From contig JACQWO010000092.1 of NCBI GenBank assembly GCA_016209225.1, positions 24,511 to 88,510 of the forward strand: a stretch of DNA of 64,000 nt. The letters are read 5' to 3'. Below are positions 5,736 through 27,770 of the stretch, in pieces (position 1 is the first letter of the stretch; every line of letters begins with the position of its first letter). The notes under the pieces are model-generated. The model was not told the DNA's origin. It saw nothing but the letters and a program-made list of their open reading frames with translations, and searched no databases. A program made the translations under genes and the position numbers. This DNA comes from Desulfobacterales bacterium. Its GTDB lineage: Bacteria; Desulfobacterota; UBA8473.

Positions 5736-7028
5736 TTACGTCCAATTAGCCACTCCATGGGGATGAACATAATCAACAACCTTCTGCATCCTGAGGGGCT
5801 TTCTCTTTGGAAACGAGAGTTTCGTACCTCTGGCGATAACTACCACCCCTCCGTCACTCACAAAAAAGCGCTTCCTATCATCTTCCAGGTCATAGCCTAT
5901 TTCTGTCCCCTGAGGCACCTTTACTCCTTTGTCTATGATGGCCCTCCTGATCTTAGAATATCTGCCAACCTCAACACCTTCCATCAGGACGGATTCCCTG
6001 ATATCAGCGTAGCTGTTAACACGAACCAGTGGAGAGAGAACAGAGTTCTGCACCCTTCCACCACTGATTATACACCCCCCCGAAACTATAGAATCCAGGC
6101 AGGCACCCATCCTTCCCCCAGGATACTCCTGGGCAAAGACGGTCTTGGCAGGAGGATACTGGCCCTGATATGTACGTAGGGGCCAGTCAGTGTCATAAAG
6201 ATTGAACTTAGGGTCAGGCGCCACCAGTTCCATATTAGCATCAAAGTAGGCATCAATGGTGCCCACATCCCTCCAGTATTTGGAGTCTTTTTTATTCTCG
6301 TCCCTGAAGTTATAGGCAAAGACCCTGGCCCGGTGGATCATCGCAGGGATGATGTCTTTGCCGAAATCGTGGTGACTCTTCTCACAGGCATCCTCCTCAA
6401 GGGATTCCCTTAAAATATCATTGTTGAATATATACACACCCATATTGGCAAAGAGGGGTTGCTTGCCGTGGAGTGAACCCTCGATTTTGTCGGGCTTCTC
6501 CTCAAAACCGATTACCCTGCCTTCATCATTAACCTTCATGATGCCAAACCGAGAACTCACCTGTTGATCCACCTCTATGGTGGCTACAGTAGCATCAGCA
6601 CCCTTTTCTTTATGAAAGGCAAGCATCCTGGAATAGTCCATCTTATAAATATGGTCAGCAGAGAGGATTAGAAAATATCCGGGGTTTACCGTGTCGGCAA
6701 AGTATAGGTTTTGGTATATGCTATCGGCTGTTCCCTTGTACCAATCTCCGTTAATCCGCATCTGGGGAGGAATTGGGAATATATATTCGTCAAGTTCTGA
6801 ATCGAAGATACTCCAGCCCAACCTGAGATGCTGTTCCAGAGACAATGACTTGTATTGGGTGAGTACCGCAATCTTACGCACACCGGAATTGATGCAGTTG
6901 CTCAAGGTGAAGTCTACCAGGCGATATATGCCTCCAAAGGGCACTGCCGGTTTGGCCCTATCACGCGTTAATGGATAGAGCCGCTCACCCATCCCCCCTG
7001 CCATAATCATGGCCAAAACATCCCTCAT
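5736..7028 (-). CDS. glgC: Glucose-1-phosphate adenylyltransferase
   Basis: 430 aa; AMIMAGGMGERLYPLTRDRAKPAVPFGG N-terminus and left-handed beta-helix C-terminal region. Confidence 0.9.
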   Translation of the reverse strand: MRDVLAMIMAGGMGERLYPLTRDRAKPAVPFGGIYRLVDFTLSNCINSGVRKIAVLTQYKSLSLEQHLRLGWSIFDSELDEYIFPIPPQMRINGDWYKGTADSIYQNLYFADTVNPGYFLILSADHIYKMDYSRMLAFHKEKGADATVATIEVDQQVSSRFGIMKVNDEGRVIGFEEKPDKIEGSLHGKQPLFANMGVYIFNNDILRESLEEDACEKSHHDFGKDIIPAMIHRARVFAYNFRDENKKDSKYWRDVGTIDAYFDANMELVAPDPKFNLYDTDWPLRTYQGQYPPAKTVFAQEYPGGRMGACLDSIVSGGCIISGGRVQNSVLSPLVRVNSYADIRESVLMEGVEVGRYSKIRRAIIDKGVKVPQGTEIGYDLEDDRKRFFVSDGGVVVIARGTKLSFPKRKPLRMQKVVDYVHPHGVANWT

Positions 7029-20080: not shown

Positions 20081-21736
20081 ATGAATAAAACCGGCATATT
20101 TCTATGTGTATGTCCGTCTATAATTTCAGCTATTGATATAGAAAAGACTGCAAAAAGTATAGAGCTAGCCAATACAGTTGTGTACTCCCATAGGTATCTC
20201 TGTTCACAAAGGGGATTGAGGTTTTTAGATGATTGTGTCGAGAAGGAAAAACTCGGTCGCATATTCATTGTGGCCTGTTCAGAGGATATTCACCGTCATG
20301 TCTTTGAAGGGGCATCTTCATCGAAAGGATATAGCATAGAATACATTGACATAGGAAAGGTTAAGGATGAAAAGGGTCTCATAGATTTAATAAAAGAAAG
20401 GCTGAAAGAGGACAGAGGGAAAACCATCGAGAAAGAGATAATGACCAGGGATGTCCTTGTAGTGGGTGGGGGTGTAGGTGGGGTTCAGGCTGCCCTGGAT
20501 ATCGCTGAAGAGGGTTACAGGGTTTATGTGGTTGAGAGTTCCCTGTCTGTTGGTGGTGTCATGGCTCAGCTCGACAAGACGTTTCCCACCATGGACTGTT
20601 CTATATGTATCCTTGGGCCAAAGCTCGTGGATGCCGGTAAACACCCCATCATCGAGTTAATAACAAATGCCGACATAAAGAGCATAACAGGCAAGGCAGG
20701 GAATTTCAATGTAGAGGTTGAAATAAAACCAAGGTATGTGGATATGGAGAAGTGCAACGGATGTAGCGCCTGTGTCGAGGTCTGTCCTGTGATATTGCCT
20801 AACGAATGGGACCTGAATTTAAAGTCCAGGAAGTGCATTTATGTGATGTTTGCCCAGTCTGTCCCCTTGAGATATACAATAGACAAAGAAAAGTGTATTG
20901 AGTGCGAACTGTGTAAGAAGGTCTGCAAATTGGATGCTATAAACCTCAACGAAGAACCAAAGAGGCGAACCTTAAACGTGGGGGCCATCGTTCTATCTAC
21001 AGGTACCGAGACATTCGATGCCTCCAGGAAAGAACAGTATGGATATGGCAGGGTGAAGAATGTAGTTACCAATATCGAGTTTGAGCGCATAGTGTGTGCA
21101 TCAGGCCCCACCAGTGGGGAACTCATAAGACCGGATGGTAAGCATATAAAGAAGGTTGCTTTTATTCAATGTGTCGGCTCCAGGGATTCACACTTCCACG
21201 AGTACTGTTCCTCTTACTGCTGTATGGCGAGTATAAAAGAGGGCAGACTGGTTATGGAGCACGAGCAGGATGCAGAGGTGTGGATATTCTATAATGACCT
21301 TCGCGCCTTTGGGAAGGGGTTTGAAGAGCTCTATGTACGGTCGGAAAAAGAAGGGATGAAGTTTGTTAAGGGTCTGCCTGGTGAGATAAGAGAGAATCCT
21401 GTAACTGAAAATCCCATTGTAGTATTTGAAGACCCGAAGGACGGGAAGCATAGTGAGGTTGAGTTTGATATGGTGGTCTTGGCAGTGGCGTTAGAACCTT
21501 CGGAACAAAATGCCCGCCTCGCTGAGATGCTCGATCTGGAGACCGACTCCCACGGTTTTTTCAAAGAGTTGGATTCCACTTCAATGCCTCTGGAGACCTC
21601 CAATAGGGGGGTATTTTTAGCCGGTACCTGCCAGGGGCCTAAGGATATACCGGAGACAGTCGCTCAGGCCAGCGGGGCAGCGGCAAAGGTGTGTGGGCTG
21701 TTTTCAGAGATAAACCAGACAGCAAAGAGGTTGTGA
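20081..21736 (+). CDS. hdrA: HdrA-like FAD/Fe-S oxidoreductase (second paralog, no MvhD domain)
   Basis: 551 aa; VVGGGVGGVQAALD, DCSICILGP, ferredoxin motifs; 3-nt gap after the previous gene. Confidence 0.85.
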   Translation: MNKTGIFLCVCPSIISAIDIEKTAKSIELANTVVYSHRYLCSQRGLRFLDDCVEKEKLGRIFIVACSEDIHRHVFEGASSSKGYSIEYIDIGKVKDEKGLIDLIKERLKEDRGKTIEKEIMTRDVLVVGGGVGGVQAALDIAEEGYRVYVVESSLSVGGVMAQLDKTFPTMDCSICILGPKLVDAGKHPIIELITNADIKSITGKAGNFNVEVEIKPRYVDMEKCNGCSACVEVCPVILPNEWDLNLKSRKCIYVMFAQSVPLRYTIDKEKCIECELCKKVCKLDAINLNEEPKRRTLNVGAIVLSTGTETFDASRKEQYGYGRVKNVVTNIEFERIVCASGPTSGELIRPDGKHIKKVAFIQCVGSRDSHFHEYCSSYCCMASIKEGRLVMEHEQDAEVWIFYNDLRAFGKGFEELYVRSEKEGMKFVKGLPGEIRENPVTENPIVVFEDPKDGKHSEVEFDMVVLAVALEPSEQNARLAEMLDLETDSHGFFKELDSTSMPLETSNRGVFLAGTCQGPKDIPETVAQASGAAAKVCGLFSEINQTAKRL

Positions 21737-21783
21737 GGAGATTATTAATTATTTGTAATGATTTCGGTGATATATGTTATATT

Positions 21784-21813
21784 GGGAATTATAAGCTGAA
21801 TAGACGAAATAAA
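21784..21813. repeat. Direct repeat copy 1 (GGGAATTATAAGCTGAATAGACGAAATAAA; extended match from 21771)
   Basis: Repeated at 22791-22820 with one mismatch. The pair brackets the HEPN/MNT cassette. Confidence 0.5.
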
Positions 21814-21826
21814 CACCAACCTATCG

Positions 21827-22135
21827 ATGGAAAGCACAACAATGAAAACTTTTAATGAAATCAAGAAGAGATTGTCCGAACAAAAACCAATTCTCCTAAA
21901 AAAATATAAAGTTAACCGCTTAGGCGTTTTTGGTTCGTATGTTCGAGGAGATCAACATCAAGGCAGTGATCTTGATGTGTTGATAGATTATGAAGATGCT
22001 CCAAGCCTCATTACTTTGATAGAATTGGAATACTACCTGAGTGAAATCGTTGGGGTAAAAGTGGACTTGGTAACTAATAAAGGTATAAAACCTCAACTCA
22101 AGGACTCTATTATCAAAGAGGTGGTTTACGTATGA
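21827..22135 (+). CDS. Nucleotidyltransferase (MNT) antitoxin of a HEPN/MNT pair
   Basis: 102 aa; LGVFGSYVRGDQHQGSDLDVLID is the minimal nucleotidyltransferase GS...DxD motif. Confidence 0.85.
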   Translation: MESTTMKTFNEIKKRLSEQKPILLKKYKVNRLGVFGSYVRGDQHQGSDLDVLIDYEDAPSLITLIELEYYLSEIVGVKVDLVTNKGIKPQLKDSIIKEVVYV

Positions 22136-22494
22136 CTCAGAGGACTGTTTTACATTTTCTTGAAGATATCTTGAAGGCAACCGATGCTATTTACGAGTTT
22201 GTGCTCGATATGAATTATGAGGCTTTCGCAAACGATGAGAAAACAATCCGTGCCGTAGAGAGAGAATTTGAGATTATTGGAGAAGCTGTTAAAAAAATTC
22301 CTGACTCGTTTACTAAAAAATATCCTGATATACCTTGGCGATCGGTTGCAGGGATGAAAGATCGTTTAACTCATCACTACTGGGAAACAGAAGCCGACAT
22401 TCTATGGAAAACGATTAAAGAATCTGTGCCACAATTAAAAGCGATCATCAAAAAAATGATCGAGAATGAGAGCATGGAAAAAAGATCCATGTAA
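22132..22494 (+). CDS. HEPN-domain toxin (HepT/DUF86)
   Basis: 120 aa; RLTHHYW fits the Rx4-6H HEPN motif; 4-nt overlap with the MNT gene. Confidence 0.85.
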   Translation: MTQRTVLHFLEDILKATDAIYEFVLDMNYEAFANDEKTIRAVEREFEIIGEAVKKIPDSFTKKYPDIPWRSVAGMKDRLTHHYWETEADILWKTIKESVPQLKAIIKKMIENESMEKRSM

Positions 22495-22527
22495 CGGGGC
22501 ATGTAACGGGCATGGCCATGTAACGGG
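22488..22527. repeat. Three tandem copies of CATGTAACGGGG starting at the HEPN stop codon
   Basis: catgtaacgggg catgtaacggg catggc catgtaacgggg. Confidence 0.5.
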
Positions 22528-22696
22528 GTCGGGCCACAGCAAGTATCGGATATTGGAACGAATAATTCAGAACTGTCCCCCTGAAATGGGCATATAATGT
22601 TCTTTTCGGGGCTGAAAAAGAGGATATAGTCTCCGAAAACACATATTCCTGGAACTGTAAACCATAAGAATCAACTACATACCTTGGCCCGACCCC
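22525..22696 (+). ncRNA. Candidate structured RNA bounded by a perfect 12-nt inverted repeat (GGGGTCGGGCCA ... TGGCCCGACCCC); possible retron msr/msd (a2/a1-like)
   Basis: The 12-nt inverted repeat flanks about 150 nt, the geometry of the Ec86 a1/a2 pair. It lies upstream of the PRTase gene. Confidence 0.25.
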
Positions 22697-22790
22697 AGGA
22701 ACCACCTTGCAATAAATGTCACAACAGGGATTACTAACAAGGGTTATTCAAGCACTTGAAGAAAACAGAATCCAATATATGATAACAGGT

Positions 22791-22820
22791 GGGAATTATA
22801 AGCTGAATAGACAAAATAAA
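22791..22820. repeat. Direct repeat copy 2 (GGGAATTATAAGCTGAATAGACAAAATAAA)
   Basis: See 21784-21813. Confidence 0.5.
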
Positions 22821-22916
22821 TTGTTATGGCATAGAGATCTAAATTAACCCTTCGGGTTGTGGTGTTATATAGAAACTTTAGAATAACTTGTTAGGGTAAA
22901 AATATAAGGAGGGATC

Positions 22917-24671
22917 ATGGCAAGTACGGTCGAAAAACTTCTTAGAGATAATGGATACTATTTATCTGACGGTCACTATAAGCTAGTTAGTGGGCGACAT
23001 TCGAATGCATATGTTCAGGCAAGAATATCTCTTATGGATCCAAAAATAAATAGTGAATTTCGCACTATATCTACAGAGTTAATTCGTGACCAGAATGTCT
23101 CTGCAGTAGCAGGATTTACAGTAGGAGGCCTACTACTCGCTGATGAAATCGCAAAATATACAAAACTTCCATTGGTAGTCGGGTATAAACCAATGAACGA
23201 TGTAGAATGGCTTGGTGCAGAAAACATTCGAGTTAATTCCAAAGTTCTTTTAGTTGATGATGTTTTAACAACGGCTTCACAGATAAGAACTGCTATACGT
23301 AGTCTTGAAGATATTAGTAATATCAGTGAACTCTTAATATTAGTCGCCGTTGACCGAAGCAATGGAGACTTGAAGATTAAATTTAGGGATGATGAAGTTA
23401 GGATATTGGACTGTATCAAAATTCCTTTATCATCATTTAATCCGAGTGAATGTCCTTCATGCTTTGCTGGGATACCTACAACTGACTTATCTAATCCTGA
23501 AAAAGACGTTGTATCTGTCGTTCTCACGCAACCTCGAGACAAATCTGACTTTATTTTAAAAGGTTATGAAAAAGTATATAAAATGCAACGAGACCAAAAG
23601 TCATTAGATGAAATGAAGGCGTGGAAATTATGGATGCCTGTACTTTTAGCAGGATTACCTATGGCAAGAGCAAAAGAAGATAGTAGTTTGATAAAGTTTG
23701 TAAGCTATTTAACGACTATAGCAGGAGAGCATAATATCAAACCGAGAGTACTCAGTGAGATAATAGGTCAGCTAATAAGGTTATCGTCAATACGAGTTGA
23801 ATCTAGGGCCATTGGCTGTTCTATGATTGTTGGCAATATAGATGAAATCGGTAATATCCTTGAATCAAGGGCGAGAGTTAGAATGCCAATAAATATAAAC
23901 CATGAAAAGCTAACAGAGCTTGTACCACACTTCGATGCACTGTTAGAAACAAATTATGCTATCGTGTTAAGCAATGATGGAAAAGCAATAGACTTCCGAA
24001 GACTCAATTTTAGTAGATCAAGACGCTATATAGAAGGCATAGAGTTAGTACGTTTTGTTACTGCAAATTCTCGGTCCATCGGTTTTGTTCTCAGGCGAGG
24101 AAGGAGTGCTATTGCTGTATATAATAATGGACGACTTGAGGCTATTGGTGAATTATCTGAAAGAAGTGGGCTTTGGGAATTTTCTAGGCCAATGGATAGG
24201 ATAGAAGAAATTCAATCAATATTAAAAAGAAATGTTCAAGAGTTACTTTTAACTTTGGTAGAAGCGTCAAGAGAACTAGTTGCTAGAGGGCATGGTGCAC
24301 TATTTGTGGTTGGTAACGTAGACTCTTTAAACCATACAGTGCCCAAAATTGAAATTGAACCTCAGAATATTAAAGACATGACAATAGAAGATTTAGTTGA
24401 ATTAGCAAAACTTGACGGTGCAGTATTGATAACTGAAGACGGCAGATTACTTCAAGCCACTGTCATATTGAAGAATCGAGATGAAGGGACCTTTGCAGGT
24501 CAACAAGCTGGTACTACGCATGGTGGCAGTCGGAAAGAAACGGCAATAAGAACAAGCATAGAATGCCCAAATTGCGCGGTGATTAATATTTCTCAAAATG
24601 GTGCTATTGAAATATATGTTCACGGAGAGTCATGGCCAATTTCTGAATCATTTTCAGGATTGTCACGATGA
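22917..24671 (+). CDS. Phosphoribosyltransferase-domain protein fused to two degenerate diadenylate-cyclase (DAC/DisA_N)-like domains; putative retron/defence effector
   Basis: 584 aa; PRTase PRPP loop NSKVLLVDDVLTTASQI. The C-terminus ELVARGHGALFVVGN...LDGAVLITEDGRLLQATVIL...GTTHGGSRKETAIRTSIECPNCAVINISQNGAIEIYVHGE aligns with CdaA but lacks RHR. An earlier degenerate copy is present. Candidate -35/-10 at 22857-22884 and a strong RBS. Confidence 0.7.
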   Translation: MASTVEKLLRDNGYYLSDGHYKLVSGRHSNAYVQARISLMDPKINSEFRTISTELIRDQNVSAVAGFTVGGLLLADEIAKYTKLPLVVGYKPMNDVEWLGAENIRVNSKVLLVDDVLTTASQIRTAIRSLEDISNISELLILVAVDRSNGDLKIKFRDDEVRILDCIKIPLSSFNPSECPSCFAGIPTTDLSNPEKDVVSVVLTQPRDKSDFILKGYEKVYKMQRDQKSLDEMKAWKLWMPVLLAGLPMARAKEDSSLIKFVSYLTTIAGEHNIKPRVLSEIIGQLIRLSSIRVESRAIGCSMIVGNIDEIGNILESRARVRMPININHEKLTELVPHFDALLETNYAIVLSNDGKAIDFRRLNFSRSRRYIEGIELVRFVTANSRSIGFVLRRGRSAIAVYNNGRLEAIGELSERSGLWEFSRPMDRIEEIQSILKRNVQELLLTLVEASRELVARGHGALFVVGNVDSLNHTVPKIEIEPQNIKDMTIEDLVELAKLDGAVLITEDGRLLQATVILKNRDEGTFAGQQAGTTHGGSRKETAIRTSIECPNCAVINISQNGAIEIYVHGESWPISESFSGLSR

Positions 24672-24691
24672 TAAAAACCCTAACCCATAAG

Positions 24692-24762
24692 GTTTGATCT
24701 GACCGGGCGACGTGAATAGAGTATAAAAAGCTGAGCTTTCGCTCCCGGTCAGAATCAAACCA
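24692..24762 (+). ncRNA. Long hairpin (17-bp stem GGTTTGATCTGACCGGG / CCCGGTCAGAATCAAACC, 36-nt loop) in the 269-bp gap upstream of the NDT-like and RT genes; second msd-like candidate
   Basis: Imperfect only by one bulged A. It is followed by a 10-bp inverted repeat ATGCGTAACC / GGTTACGCAT at 24789-24798 / 24868-24877, and has no T-run after it. Confidence 0.3.
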
Positions 24763-24940
24763 TTGTTCAACAACAGCATGCACATGAATGCGTAACCGCA
24801 AGGTGCTTTTTGGCTTTTGATTATTTTACTTTTGCAAAGCATCTTTGAGCATGTTTACAAGATACAGGTTACGCATCAGTGATGCTCGCGTTAGACATAT
24901 AAATAATTAAAGATCATGGCTGGTGTAACATCAAGAAATT

Positions 24941-25507
24941 ATGAGTGATATCAAAGAATCAATAACAAGATTTGGCAATGATTTAGAGGATATTTTCTCA
25001 GAACGTAGAGCTGTTGTTTTTCTCTGCGGCCCGTCTTCCAAAGACCTAGATCATCCTGGTGCACAATTACGCGTCGACCTTGAGGAAGCATTAAAGCAAG
25101 AAGGCTTCGAGGTGATTCTAGGAGAGGATGATGGGCTTGAAAGCCTCAGGCATAAATATAGTAACTATGCACATGAAAATGAATTGATGTTTATTCAAAA
25201 ACACTGCAATGCAGTGATCCTTATCGCTTCTAGTGTTGGTGCCTACTGTGAATTGGGTTTATTTTCTTACAAAAAAGTTCATGACTTAGAAAGCATGACG
25301 GATTTTATTTTAATAATTAGCAATGAATATGAAAATGTACAATCTTTTTTAATCGAGGGACCAGCTGCTGCTATCGATGATTTTGGGAAAGTTTTTTACG
25401 GAGACTTATCTAATTTTGATTATAGCAATATTATTAAAAGGTTGAGGCGGAGGCGCTCTGTTTATTTTACAAGTCACAAAGGTCGTCCACCTTCATTTAA
25501 TGAATAA
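24941..25507 (+). CDS. Nucleoside 2-deoxyribosyltransferase-like (NDT-like) protein, the effector class of type II retrons
   Basis: 188 aa; AVVFLCGP (compare IYLAGP) and AVILIASSVGAYCELGLF (compare DSGTAFELGYA); 2-nt gap to the RT gene. Confidence 0.65.
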   Translation: MSDIKESITRFGNDLEDIFSERRAVVFLCGPSSKDLDHPGAQLRVDLEEALKQEGFEVILGEDDGLESLRHKYSNYAHENELMFIQKHCNAVILIASSVGAYCELGLFSYKKVHDLESMTDFILIISNEYENVQSFLIEGPAAAIDDFGKVFYGDLSNFDYSNIIKRLRRRRSVYFTSHKGRPPSFNE

Positions 25508-25509
25508 CG

Positions 25510-26991
25510 ATGCGAGTAACATTAAACGAAAATATACTACTCTGGGCGGCAGCAGTTTTACAACCAGCTTCTGCGGCTGATGTTAGAAGTTTTATTGCAT
25601 CAATTTATCCAGAAATTTCACTACTCCCCAATATTGGAGAAATCGAAAATATTTTTTCAACTTGGCGAGAAGAAGGGTATTTACAGAGAGTTCATGGTAA
25701 ATCAAGATTGTATTCAGCAACTTACAAAACAAATTTAAAGCTATCAGTAAAGCTAAGACGAAGCAGGGACAAGTCCCGTCTTTTCTTGCTTAAATCTACA
25801 AGAGCTGCTAATGTGAATGTATCGGGGGTACGAGAACAGGATTCGGTTGGCGATTCGCCATCCACGGAAGGTAGCATAATTTTACAAGAGGGTGCGTGGC
25901 CAATAAAACCGGCCGCTGCTCCTCGGGTTCCTCGGACCACCGGCCGATTTTATTGGCCACGGATCTCAAAGCAACTAAGTATTGAAGTTGGCCCTAGTTT
26001 TTCGTCCCCCGATACATTTTTTAACTATTATTCATTCCCTTCTATCAAAACCATTCATGAGGCTAGTCATAAGCCTGCTTCAGAAAAAGATCTAAGTATA
26101 ACAGATATCTCTTTAGCCATTGGAATAAGTCCGCGGCTCATTACATCCTTTATTCATGCCCCTGAAAACCATTATAGGCAATTTAAAATTGGTAAACGAG
26201 GTGGTGGAGAGCGTGTTATAAATTCGCCTAGAACATTTTTAAAGGTGGTTCAATACTGGATATTAGATTATCTGCTTCATTCTTTGCCTTGTCATCCGAA
26301 CTGTCATTCCTACCAAAAAGGAAAGTCTATTTTGTCTAATTCTCTTCCTCATGTTGGGCAAAAATATTTAGCAAACATTGATATTTCTAATTATTTCCCA
26401 TCAATTAATGAAAAAATGGTTTTCTCTCTTTTAAGAGACAATAATTTTGGAGAACAGTTATCAAAAGCCGTCGCCCGTATTGTCACACTTGAGAATGGTT
26501 TGCCCCAGGGCGCACCAACTAGCCCAATTATTTCCAATGCGTTTCTATGTAATTTTGATGAAATTATGACTCAGCGAGCTTTGTCTTTTAATCTTGTATA
26601 TACAAGATATGCAGATGACATGACTATAAGCGGGGAAAATAAAGAGAATATAATTAGTTTGATAAAAAATTTGTCTGCTAATCTCAAGGATATGGGCCTC
26701 TCCATTAATGAGAAAAAAACAAGGATCGCGAGTCAAGGAGGACAGCAAAAAGTGACAGGCATAGTTGTAAACGAAGTTTCGCAACCACCTCGTACTTATA
26801 GAAGGAACATTAGATCAATGTTTCACCATGCAGAGAGAAACCCAGAATTATTTGCAGACAATATTAAAGTTCTGAAAGGATATATAAGTTATTTGCAAAG
26901 TTTTCCGAATATGCAAGGGAAAAAAGAAATATTCAGATATAAAAATGTTTGTAAAACAATTGAAAAGAATTTTGTCCAACAATCGCATTAG
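25510..26991 (+). CDS. Retron-type reverse transcriptase with an N-terminal extension of about 190 aa
   Basis: 493 aa; FKIGKRGGGERVINSP, LPQGAPTSP, YTRYADDMTISG (YADD), and the retron-specific QKVTGIVVN (VTG). Confidence 0.85.
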   Translation: MRVTLNENILLWAAAVLQPASAADVRSFIASIYPEISLLPNIGEIENIFSTWREEGYLQRVHGKSRLYSATYKTNLKLSVKLRRSRDKSRLFLLKSTRAANVNVSGVREQDSVGDSPSTEGSIILQEGAWPIKPAAAPRVPRTTGRFYWPRISKQLSIEVGPSFSSPDTFFNYYSFPSIKTIHEASHKPASEKDLSITDISLAIGISPRLITSFIHAPENHYRQFKIGKRGGGERVINSPRTFLKVVQYWILDYLLHSLPCHPNCHSYQKGKSILSNSLPHVGQKYLANIDISNYFPSINEKMVFSLLRDNNFGEQLSKAVARIVTLENGLPQGAPTSPIISNAFLCNFDEIMTQRALSFNLVYTRYADDMTISGENKENIISLIKNLSANLKDMGLSINEKKTRIASQGGQQKVTGIVVNEVSQPPRTYRRNIRSMFHHAERNPELFADNIKVLKGYISYLQSFPNMQGKKEIFRYKNVCKTIEKNFVQQSH

Positions 26992-27036
26992 CTCATATAA
27001 ATAAGCATAAGCAATTATTGAAAGGAGGAATATATT

Positions 27037-27240
27037 ATGGATAAGGCTCTTTTAGAAAAAGCATTAGAAATGTCACCGAATGAAAGGGTAGTACTTGCTG
27101 AGTTAATCCTAGCTAGCATCGATCATGAAGAAGATGAAATTCGCGAATTATGGCTTTCTGAAATAAAAGACCGTATAAAAGCAGTCAATGAAGGTAAAGC
27201 AAAATTATTAGATTTTGAAAGGCTATACAATGAAAGTTAG
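27037..27240 (+). CDS. Putative addiction-module antitoxin component (orphan, no toxin gene adjacent)
   Basis: 67 aa; MSPNERVVLAELILASID...LSEIKDRI fits the small alpha-helical antitoxin family usually paired with RelE/ParE-like toxins. Confidence 0.55.
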   Translation: MDKALLEKALEMSPNERVVLAELILASIDHEEDEIRELWLSEIKDRIKAVNEGKAKLLDFERLYNES

Positions 27241-27308
27241 TATTGGATAGTGTTTAAATACTCGGTTCACATTTATGTTTTTTGGACATCCTCAAATAAG
27301 GTAATTCT

Positions 27309-27770
27309 ATGGCAAAGCTATCCATGTACCAACTGTACCATTATCTCCCGAAAACCGATTGTGAGAAGTGCGGCTTTTCATGTATGGGATTCGCTAATCG
27401 CCTTATTTCCAGAGATGTTAGACCGGAGGATTGCCCTTTTCTATTGGAACCGGAGTACTCAGAGTCCCTGACTGAACTGAACAGGCTTCTGGGCCCTGAG
27501 GTTGAGAAAGAGATCACAGGGCTTATAATAGACCAGGAAAAGTGCAATGGATGCGGTATATGTGTTACTGTATGTGAGGTAAATATGGAAAAGAGTCAAG
27601 AGGTAGGAGCGGGGAGAGGTCCTGGCTTTTCAGATGAGGTTGTGTTACGAATAGATAATGGGAAGATTAAGCTGGTTGACCCCCAATCTTGCAGACGGGC
27701 AAACCCCTCTTCCCATATCTGCAGGGCATGTGCGGAACTATGCCCCACAAAAGCTATTAGCCTTGTGTGA
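27309..27770 (+). CDS. Small Fe-S protein: N-terminal CFeSP/CdhE-like 4Fe-4S motif plus ferredoxin-like cluster motifs
   Basis: 153 aa; LPKTDCEKCGFSCMGFANRL...CPF resembles the corrinoid Fe-S protein large-subunit N-terminus; then CNGCGICVTVC and CRACAELCP. Confidence 0.6.
   Translation: MAKLSMYQLYHYLPKTDCEKCGFSCMGFANRLISRDVRPEDCPFLLEPEYSESLTELNRLLGPEVEKEITGLIIDQEKCNGCGICVTVCEVNMEKSQEVGAGRGPGFSDEVVLRIDNGKIKLVDPQSCRRANPSSHICRACAELCPTKAISLV

Follow-up and report, generated by a model that had tools for sequence, protein, structure and literature searches.

A predicted type II-A2 retron with its template RNA inside the reverse transcriptase gene, beside a probably unrelated PRTase–DAC gene in an AT-rich island

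The locus

We analysed a 64,000-nucleotide (nt) stretch of a Desulfobacterales genome (GenBank assembly GCA_016209225.1, contig JACQWO010000092.1, positions 24,511–88,510), here called the window, in which a retron reverse transcriptase (RT) gene lies close to a gene for a phosphoribosyltransferase (PRTase) fused to diadenylate cyclase (DAC) folds. Three co-oriented open reading frames (ORFs) occupy the + strand at 22917–24671 (584 amino acids (aa)), 24941–25507 (188 aa) and 25510–26991 (493 aa), in an island in which GC content is 0.34–0.40 (approximately 22000–27500) compared with 0.42–0.50 in the flanks. The original prediction, made from the letters alone, had placed these ORFs exactly and had noticed the AT-rich island, and had read the three genes together as a retron-like locus of unusual three-protein composition.

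The first ORF encodes a PRTase/DAC-like/DAC fusion, and a hairpin (24691–24761, +) starts 20 nt past its stop codon. A leader element (24762–24902, +), consisting of a variable long hairpin between conserved flanks, precedes the second ORF, which encodes an NDT-like retron effector of the short form of the STM3845/RcaT family. The third encodes the retron RT, with an N-terminal region (codons 1 to ~195) ahead of the RT domain, and a predicted retron non-coding RNA (ncRNA; msr–msd, 25815–26019, +) sits in frame within RT codons ~103–170. In our judgement, at a probability of roughly 80%, these are two unrelated modules, neighbours within a small AT-rich island: a type II-A2 retron (module 1, ~24762–26991) and, separate from the retron, the PRTase/DAC-like/DAC gene with its own 3′ hairpin (module 2, 22917–24761). 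The comparisons that follow concern gene content, family membership, linkage, conserved RNA structure and protein folds.

Linkage of the three genes

On the PRTase–DAC side we examined 10 of the 22 homologue clusters, at 81% to 42% identity. None of these 10 contexts has an RVT_1/RT or NDT neighbour, and tblastn of the window NDT and RT proteins against the homologue loci gave no match. On the RT side, a metagenome scan with the RT N-terminal domain, together with earlier loci, yielded 31 further loci with an extended RT, none of which contains a tblastn match to the PRTase–DAC protein; approximately 12 of them include at least 1.8 kb of upstream DNA. A scan of genome contigs with the whole RT alignment picked up generic retron motifs, mostly of other types, and contributed three useful loci (L012, L013 and L033). 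Beside RT homologues at 82% and 73% identity the 188-aa NDT gene is present and the PRTase–DAC gene is absent; upstream of the NDT–RT pair these loci have either a helix-turn-helix gene with a restriction–modification cluster or an HSP20 gene. Wherever else we looked, the NDT–RT pair was thus found without the PRTase–DAC gene and the PRTase–DAC gene without the pair, and the three-gene architecture proposed originally is adjacency, not a conserved system.

The 3′ hairpin of the PRTase–DAC gene (minimum free energy −31.8 kcal/mol, z −6.5) also has counterparts elsewhere. In the closest PRTase–DAC homologues, L096 and L011, both of which are retron-free, this position holds the same AACCCTAACC box, with an 11–12 bp inverted repeat after it. 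Because the hairpin recurs after PRTase–DAC genes in loci of this kind, we place the module boundary at approximately 24761/24762. Neither module accompanies the other in the further loci examined and the 3′ hairpin is kept in retron-free loci, and we therefore treat the two modules as independent.

Several points weigh against this independence. The modules are co-oriented and 269 nt apart, and scans for consensus promoters and terminators between them found none, doing no better than on shuffled sequences; given the shared orientation, the short gap and the lack of such signals, the modules may be co-transcribed and hence functionally linked at this locus. Most of the comparison contigs are, moreover, short metagenome fragments. 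The same orientation, spacing and missing signals would favour a single functional unit, a retron that has recruited the PRTase–DAC protein as a second effector or as a nucleotide-signalling sensor, and such an arrangement would fit with the modularity of retrons, the PRTase effectors of type III retrons and the recent ties of DAC domains to defence. We nevertheless regard a single unit as very improbable: none of the 31 retron loci and none of the 10 PRTase–DAC contexts shows co-occurrence, the PRTase is orotate-PRTase-like and falls outside the retron III/ShosT clade, the PRTase–DAC gene brings its own conserved 3′ hairpin, and the retron is complete without it, with effector, RT and ncRNA all present. 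Before neighbouring genes of a defence island are taken for a new system, the conservation of their neighbourhood needs to be checked.

A retron of type II-A2 layout

The 493-aa protein matches the PADLOC model RT_II-A (PDLC02940) at 600 bits (E = 8.7e-181), with residues 1–486 covering profile positions 1–474 of 477, and scores 255 bits on NCBIfam retron_St85_RT (cut-off 235). It reaches far lower scores on the group II intron RT model (79 bits) and on Drt/Abi models (at most 59 bits), which bears out the retron identity suggested originally. Within the RT domain (Pfam RVT_1, residues 227–418; 26188–26763), the motifs that had prompted that suggestion, YADD (367–370), LPQGAPTSP and VTG (V415-T416-G417), are present and conserved along with an NAxxH-type region X (N277..H281), as in the retron clade of RTs.

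The 188-aa protein, which had been called NDT-like, is indeed so: it matches PADLOC NDT_II-A (PDLC02929) at E = 2.3e-50 over profile positions 26–196 of 199, and E104, the glutamate of CELG (in CELGLF), is invariant in 16 NDT homologues. Its alignment to the long-form models is confined to their N-terminal half (PDLC02930, positions 3–152 of 272; NCBIfam STM3845_fam, positions 10–163 of 277). There are 242 homologue clusters, and those listed are approximately 188 aa long and carry PF28093. Only 2 nt separate the NDT stop codon from the RT start codon, and the two genes are translationally coupled.

In the searchable text of Mestre et al. 2020 (PMC7736814), type II-A2 retrons are described as having an NDT-like protein split from its C-terminal domain and an extension on the RT N terminus, and this extension is said to derive from the effector’s DNA-binding domain at the C terminus. 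Our hidden Markov model searches of the RT N-terminal extension against the C-terminal half of the long-form effector models found no detectable similarity, and a large part of the extension encodes the ncRNA. The extension, approximately 190 aa long, had appeared unusual at first sight; it is instead an integral part of PDLC02940 (RT residues 1–193 alone match profile positions 1–188, E = 3e-48), it occurs in more than 100 RT homologue clusters that cover 96–100% of the query, and it fits the II-A2 description. Both proteins are covered end to end by PADLOC II-A models, and we found no substantive protein difference from type II-A2 as that text presents it. On the basis of these PADLOC and NCBIfam scores and of the short-NDT/extended-RT layout, the pair is, by sequence, an ordinary retron of type II-A2 layout, a known subtype, although it tells somewhat against the A2 assignment itself that this draws on the published description instead of the tree or the covariance model of its authors.

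Retron-Sen2/St85 (II-A1) and Retron-Eco1/Ec86 (II-A3) share with this locus the combination of RT, msDNA and NDT-like effector, known here from genes and a predicted RNA. The Sen2 and Ec86 effectors are approximately 270–280 aa long and have their own C-terminal DNA-binding domain, compared with 188 aa here; their ncRNA is a separate upstream gene, whereas the predicted ncRNA of the window is in frame inside the extension of an RT that is approximately 190 aa longer.

Template RNA within the RT reading frame

A sliding z-score profile across nine retron loci has a single positionally conserved structured region, 350–450 nt into the RT ORF, and the equivalent region of the RT gene forms an unusually stable hairpin in all homologues that were folded. 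RNAalifold on 18 loci returned 53 pairs, 29 of them with compensatory changes, in the canonical a1/msr/msd/a2 layout. For pair counting, 50 of the 53 pairs were entered as five helices. Across the 18 loci, standard pairs fill 94.3% of the cells, compared with 32–50% when the 3′ partners are slid, and 29 of the 50 pairs show changes on both sides, compared with 7–14 for slid partners. Shuffles reached the observed pairing values in 0 of 500 cases.

In the window, a1 (25815–25828, core ATCGGGGG at 25821–25828) pairs with a2 (26006–26019, core CCCCCGAT at 26006–26013), with limits taken from the single-sequence fold of the window. An extension helix lies between a1/a2 and the junction, followed by a short msr hairpin (25845–25863), a conserved single-stranded GGTAGC (GGUAGC in the RNA; 25870–25875), a long msd hairpin (25895–25961) with a 22-bp consensus stem and a small hairpin (25972–25991). 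The single-sequence fold (−94 kcal/mol, z −7.7) agrees with this consensus layout. A search of Rfam with 21500–27600 gave only a weak microRNA-like match, to the msd hairpin inside the RT gene.

Two distant family members, both from cultured strains, have the same order of a1, msr, msd, small hairpin and a2 at the same place in unrelated sequence: Pseudoalteromonas xiamenensis CGMCC 1.12157 (L013, z −9.7) and Pararhizobium mangrovi BGMRC 6574 (L033, z −9.9). Counted from the RT start (position 6001), their embedded structure extends over approximately +240 to +560 nt. These strains would be convenient hosts in which to check production of msDNA.

The structured stretch is also coding. Frame 0 is free of stops over it in 18 of 18 loci, the other two frames contain 3–17 stops, and the alignment gaps within each row sum to multiples of three; the stretch is in frame, too, within single tblastn alignments of two further distant members (27% and 36% identity). 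The open frame, the gaps in threes and the conserved pairing together imply that the stretch is both translated and structured, and its presence in frame in 18 of 18 loci plus two distant members makes this a clean case of dual coding. Read as DNA, some conserved ‘protein’ motifs, (W/R)PI and YWP for example, are one another’s reverse complements, and the conservation of RT residues 105–168 may reflect RNA pairing rather than protein function.

We predict that 25815–26019 is the msr–msd template RNA of the retron. A point that counts against this placement is that G–U pairs resolve the strand weakly, with 94.3% of cells pairing on the + strand and 91.2% on the − strand; the RT strand is the natural choice. 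We did not find an msr–msd inside the RT ORF stated in the searchable literature, and the searchable text of Mestre et al. 2020 does not mention an ncRNA within the RT ORF, which may be implicit in the published IIA2 model. If the prediction is correct, the template RNA of this large RT family resides in the N-terminal extension, and this locates the msd for cloning and engineering of II-A2 retrons.

The spacer upstream of the NDT gene

Characterised II-A1 retrons such as Retron-Sen2 have their ncRNA upstream of the effector gene. This precedent is one argument for an alternative in which 25815–26019 is an mRNA element that controls translation or stability of the RT message, and the true ncRNA would be found ahead of the NDT gene, at approximately 24762–24902; that 25815–26019 is translated in a conserved frame would suit such an element as well. 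The leader element of the window forms a hairpin closed by the flanks ..GTTCAAC and GTTAGAC. The motif GTT[GA]GAC recurs 51–57 nt before the NDT start in five loci (the window, L107, L108, L109 and L121), and in four of these a CAAC/GUUG closing helix surrounds hairpins of unrelated sequence, 48–118 nt long, with z scores of −2.5 to −4.6 (window 24762–24902, L107 462–562, L121 136–212 and L109 4332–4398). The helix did not form in L108, despite the motif.

This upstream element is, however, missing from the closer relatives L092 and L095, and the region gives no consistent structure signal in the nine-locus profile, whereas the structure inside the RT gene has a full retron layout, in which a long terminal a1/a2 helix encloses a short hairpin that is conserved, the conserved single-stranded GGUAGC and a long hairpin that varies, and this layout persists in members of unrelated sequence. 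We accordingly consider an mRNA element with a separate upstream ncRNA to be improbable, and retain 25815–26019 as the predicted template RNA. The spacer as a whole (24672–24940), at first a candidate ncRNA, folds well but lacks sequence conservation, its first hairpin belongs to the PRTase–DAC gene and its second is conserved in only four loci; with the signal of the sliding z-score profile falling within the RT ORF, we no longer favour it.

The PRTase–DAC protein

The 584-aa protein comprises an orotate-PRTase-like domain (residues 1–195; 22917–23501, +), a helical linker with a degenerate DAC-fold domain (residues 196–440; 23502–24236, +) and a DAC domain (residues 449–571; 24261–24629, +). 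Pfam, Foldseek and fold comparison uphold the original description of a PRTase with two degenerate DAC-fold domains behind it. The Pfam Pribosyltran match (residues 42–162) is borderline, at 26.9 bits (cut-off 26.3), and the best Foldseek matches in the Protein Data Bank (PDB) of the AF2 model of the protein (pLDDT 84.8) are orotate PRTases (E = 3.6e-10). In the phosphoribosyl pyrophosphate (PRPP) loop, LLVDDVLTTASQ, residues D114, D115, T118 and T119 are invariant. The score on TIGR01367 is 65 bits, below the PyrE equivalog cut-off of 150, and the domain is therefore not a bona fide PyrE.

The C-terminal domain matches Pfam DAC (PF02457) over residues 449–571 (E = 1.6e-12, 47.5 bits, cut-off 27). 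It keeps the DGA motif, with D500 and G501 invariant in KLDGA, and has lost RHR: GTTHGGSRKE in the window aligns to GTRHRS of DisA, and the family consensus is xHGGSRK, in which both arginines are gone and the histidine is kept in most members. The middle domain was assigned as a degenerate DAC fold by fold comparison only; its sequence profile found no PDB relative, and internal duplication of the DAC domain is weak by sequence (hhalign P = 0.005 over 108 in-register columns).

The protein differs from the diadenylate cyclases DisA, CdaA, CdaS and DacM/CdaM in having two DAC folds per chain, of which the first is degenerate, in the change of RHR to xHGGSRK and in its N-terminal orotate-PRTase-like domain; it has neither the HhH of DisA nor the membrane anchor of CdaA. 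Its asymmetric tandem DAC pair and the pyr-gene neighbours of its homologues are suggestively reminiscent of Panoptoo PanS, whose broken active-site symmetry yields the asymmetric, pyrimidine-containing product 3′3′-cUA (Ragucci et al. 2026 preprint, PMC13640738). PanS, however, is a minimal DAC paired with a membrane effector, and no such partner occurs at this locus. The CBASS-associated DAC of DS-2, which like PanS shows a DAC fold in anti-phage use, sits with a cGAS and a phospholipase (DefensePredictor, PMC13092281), partners that are absent here, and at 15.6 bits on NCBIfam DS2_3, against a cut-off of 630, the 584-aa protein is not a DS-2 member.

With the retron III PRTase effectors, ShosT, PsyrT and OpnC, the protein shares a type I PRTase fold, an intact acidic pair in the PRPP loop and a defence-island setting. 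The models of these defence PRTases nevertheless barely match it (PADLOC ShosT, E = 0.016; no PRTase_III-A match listed at E ≤ 0.1), its PRTase domain is nearest to PyrE, and DAC folds fused to that domain take the place of a winged-helix or DprA-like partner. The original prediction had seen NDT and PRTase effectors of different retron classes co-occurring in one locus, and this falls with the assignment of the PRTase as orotate-PRTase-like rather than of the retron III/ShosT kind. Its further suggestion of a retron that uses nucleotide signalling has no support, because the three genes are not linked elsewhere, the RT extension is ordinary and the PRTase is not of a retron type.

Relatives and gene neighbours

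A profile search of 1.84 billion proteins returned fewer than 10 full-length representatives at 50% identity, with a patchy distribution, and the protein has only 22 homologue clusters. The relatives include a TIR–PRTase–DAC–DAC fusion (P0266), a TIR–PRTase (P0280), a Metallophos–PRTase–midDAC protein (P0294) with weak matches to DS8/DS9 antiphage and PDC-S60 models, and PRTase proteins whose C-terminal half is a different one. The tandem module of a degenerate and a C-terminal DAC domain is shared by a larger family of approximately 770–900 aa (P0289, P0295, P0297, P0316 and others), where it lies behind an N-terminal region of approximately 450 aa that has no Pfam, PADLOC or NCBIfam match.

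Paralogues of pyrE, pyrF or pyrH type adjoin 7 of the 10 homologues examined (L096 2843–3391(−); L005 1000–1617; L006 518–1129 and 4265–4936; L002 3732–5036; L009 8462–9802(−); L001 3904–5627(−); L127 3072–4222). They pass NCBIfam cut-offs, and several are duplicated or tandem-fused, among them a double orotate PRTase fused in tandem, a pair of adjoining pyrF genes and a pair of adjoining pyrH genes of archaeal type. No paralogue of these types lies beside the PRTase–DAC gene of the window. Other neighbours in the 10 contexts are orotidine monophosphate decarboxylases, uridine monophosphate kinases, a 1082-aa protein, a radical-SAM/GHKL cluster, a topoisomerase, MerR and small unknown proteins, and genes of the kind found in genetic conflicts are present as well: SIR2_2, an integrase, a PIN-domain gene and toxin–antitoxin genes.

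Our best guess is that the module 2 protein is an autonomous conflict or defence protein of a small family whose movement is independent of retrons. A serious alternative, which we rate as less likely, is a metabolic or regulatory role in pyrimidine or c-di-AMP metabolism, such as that of a PRPP- or orotate-sensing nucleotide-binding regulator that is in the island by chance. It would account for a PRTase domain that is closest to PyrE on TIGR01367 and among Foldseek matches, and for pyr-type neighbours that pass NCBIfam cut-offs. Two observations that favour it also detract from a defence role: the context of L001 is metabolic rather than defensive in appearance; and no significant match to the 584-aa protein was found among PADLOC v2 and NCBIfam defence models (DS2_3, E = 0.004). 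Searches of viral contigs likewise found no relative of the PRTase–DAC protein. A further point against our own reading is that cyclase activity of the C-terminal DAC domain is doubtful, judging by the loss of both RHR arginines. A metabolic role is, conversely, hard to square with the rarity and patchiness of the family, its TIR- and phosphoesterase-fused relatives, the SIR2_2, integrase, PIN-domain and toxin–antitoxin neighbours, the highly variable contexts, and pyr genes that are duplicated or tandem-fused paralogues with no normal pyr operon.

Two of the homologue loci share a two-gene cassette (L002 3732–5713; L009 7831–9802(−)) in which the double orotate PRTase (434–446 aa) is followed by an approximately 221-aa protein with a weak JAB-like match (PADLOC, E = 2.6e-4); integrase and SSB genes lie near the cassette in L002. 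Downstream of the PRTase–DAC homologue in L006 (4265–8703) are co-oriented genes for an orotate-PRTase-like protein (223 aa), a SIR2_2 protein that is ThsA-like (E = 3e-16) and two unknown proteins (458 and 415 aa), a run that looks like an undescribed SIR2-containing cluster. The six listed of 14 contigs with the 81%-identical homologue (L096–L101) come from different samples and all end approximately 125 nt upstream of its start codon, which hints at a repeat or variable junction at that point.

Possible mechanisms

For the retron, we infer msDNA synthesis and effector chemistry by analogy with Retron-Sen2/St85 and Retron-Eco1/Ec86. The RT would copy the msd hairpin into msDNA, and the NDT-like protein, as an N-glycosidase, would be kept inactive by the RT–msDNA complex, a restraint that is likely in view of the Sen2 and Ec86 systems. 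The effector would then be freed once a phage factor had modified or degraded the msDNA, and would deplete nucleotide derivatives and so abort the infection. Ec86 is reported to act by depleting nucleoside derivatives (bioRxiv 10.1101/2023.08.16.553469).

In module 2, the orotate-PRTase-like domain and the asymmetric tandem DAC pair would together bind or make a nucleotide, which may contain a pyrimidine given the pyr-gene neighbours of the homologues. A fuller proposal, which we offer tentatively, makes the PRTase/DAC-like/DAC protein the core of an undescribed anti-phage family: the asymmetric DAC pair would make or sense a pyrimidine-containing nucleotide signal, with the PRTase-like domain feeding or gating the pair and, in many cases, private pyrE, pyrF or pyrH paralogues alongside, and the TIR- and phosphoesterase-fused relatives would be effector-bearing variants; separately, the II-A2 msr–msd would also be translated within its own RT. 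The rare combination of a PRTase with tandem DAC domains, the TIR-fused relatives and the pyrimidine-enzyme partners make this family a candidate that bears on the role of DAC domains in immunity.

Other features of the island

The island is flanked by energy-metabolism genes, which are HdrA-like and of molybdopterin/amidohydrolase type. It additionally carries an MNT/HepT toxin–antitoxin pair (21827–22494) and an orphan Unstab_antitox antitoxin gene (27037–27240; Pfam E = 6e-13) with no recognisable toxin partner, which is followed by an ORF (27250–27471) that has no Pfam match and overlaps an Fe–S protein gene. A 31-nt direct repeat, GGGAATTATAAGCTGAATAGAC[G/A]AAATAAA, occurs in 97% identical copies at 21783–21813 and 22790–22820 and brackets the MNT/HepT cassette; the cassette looks as if it went into the PRTase–DAC gene’s leader or was duplicated along with it. 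Directly 3′ of the HepT stop codon, CATGTAACGGG is present in three closely spaced copies (22493–22527).

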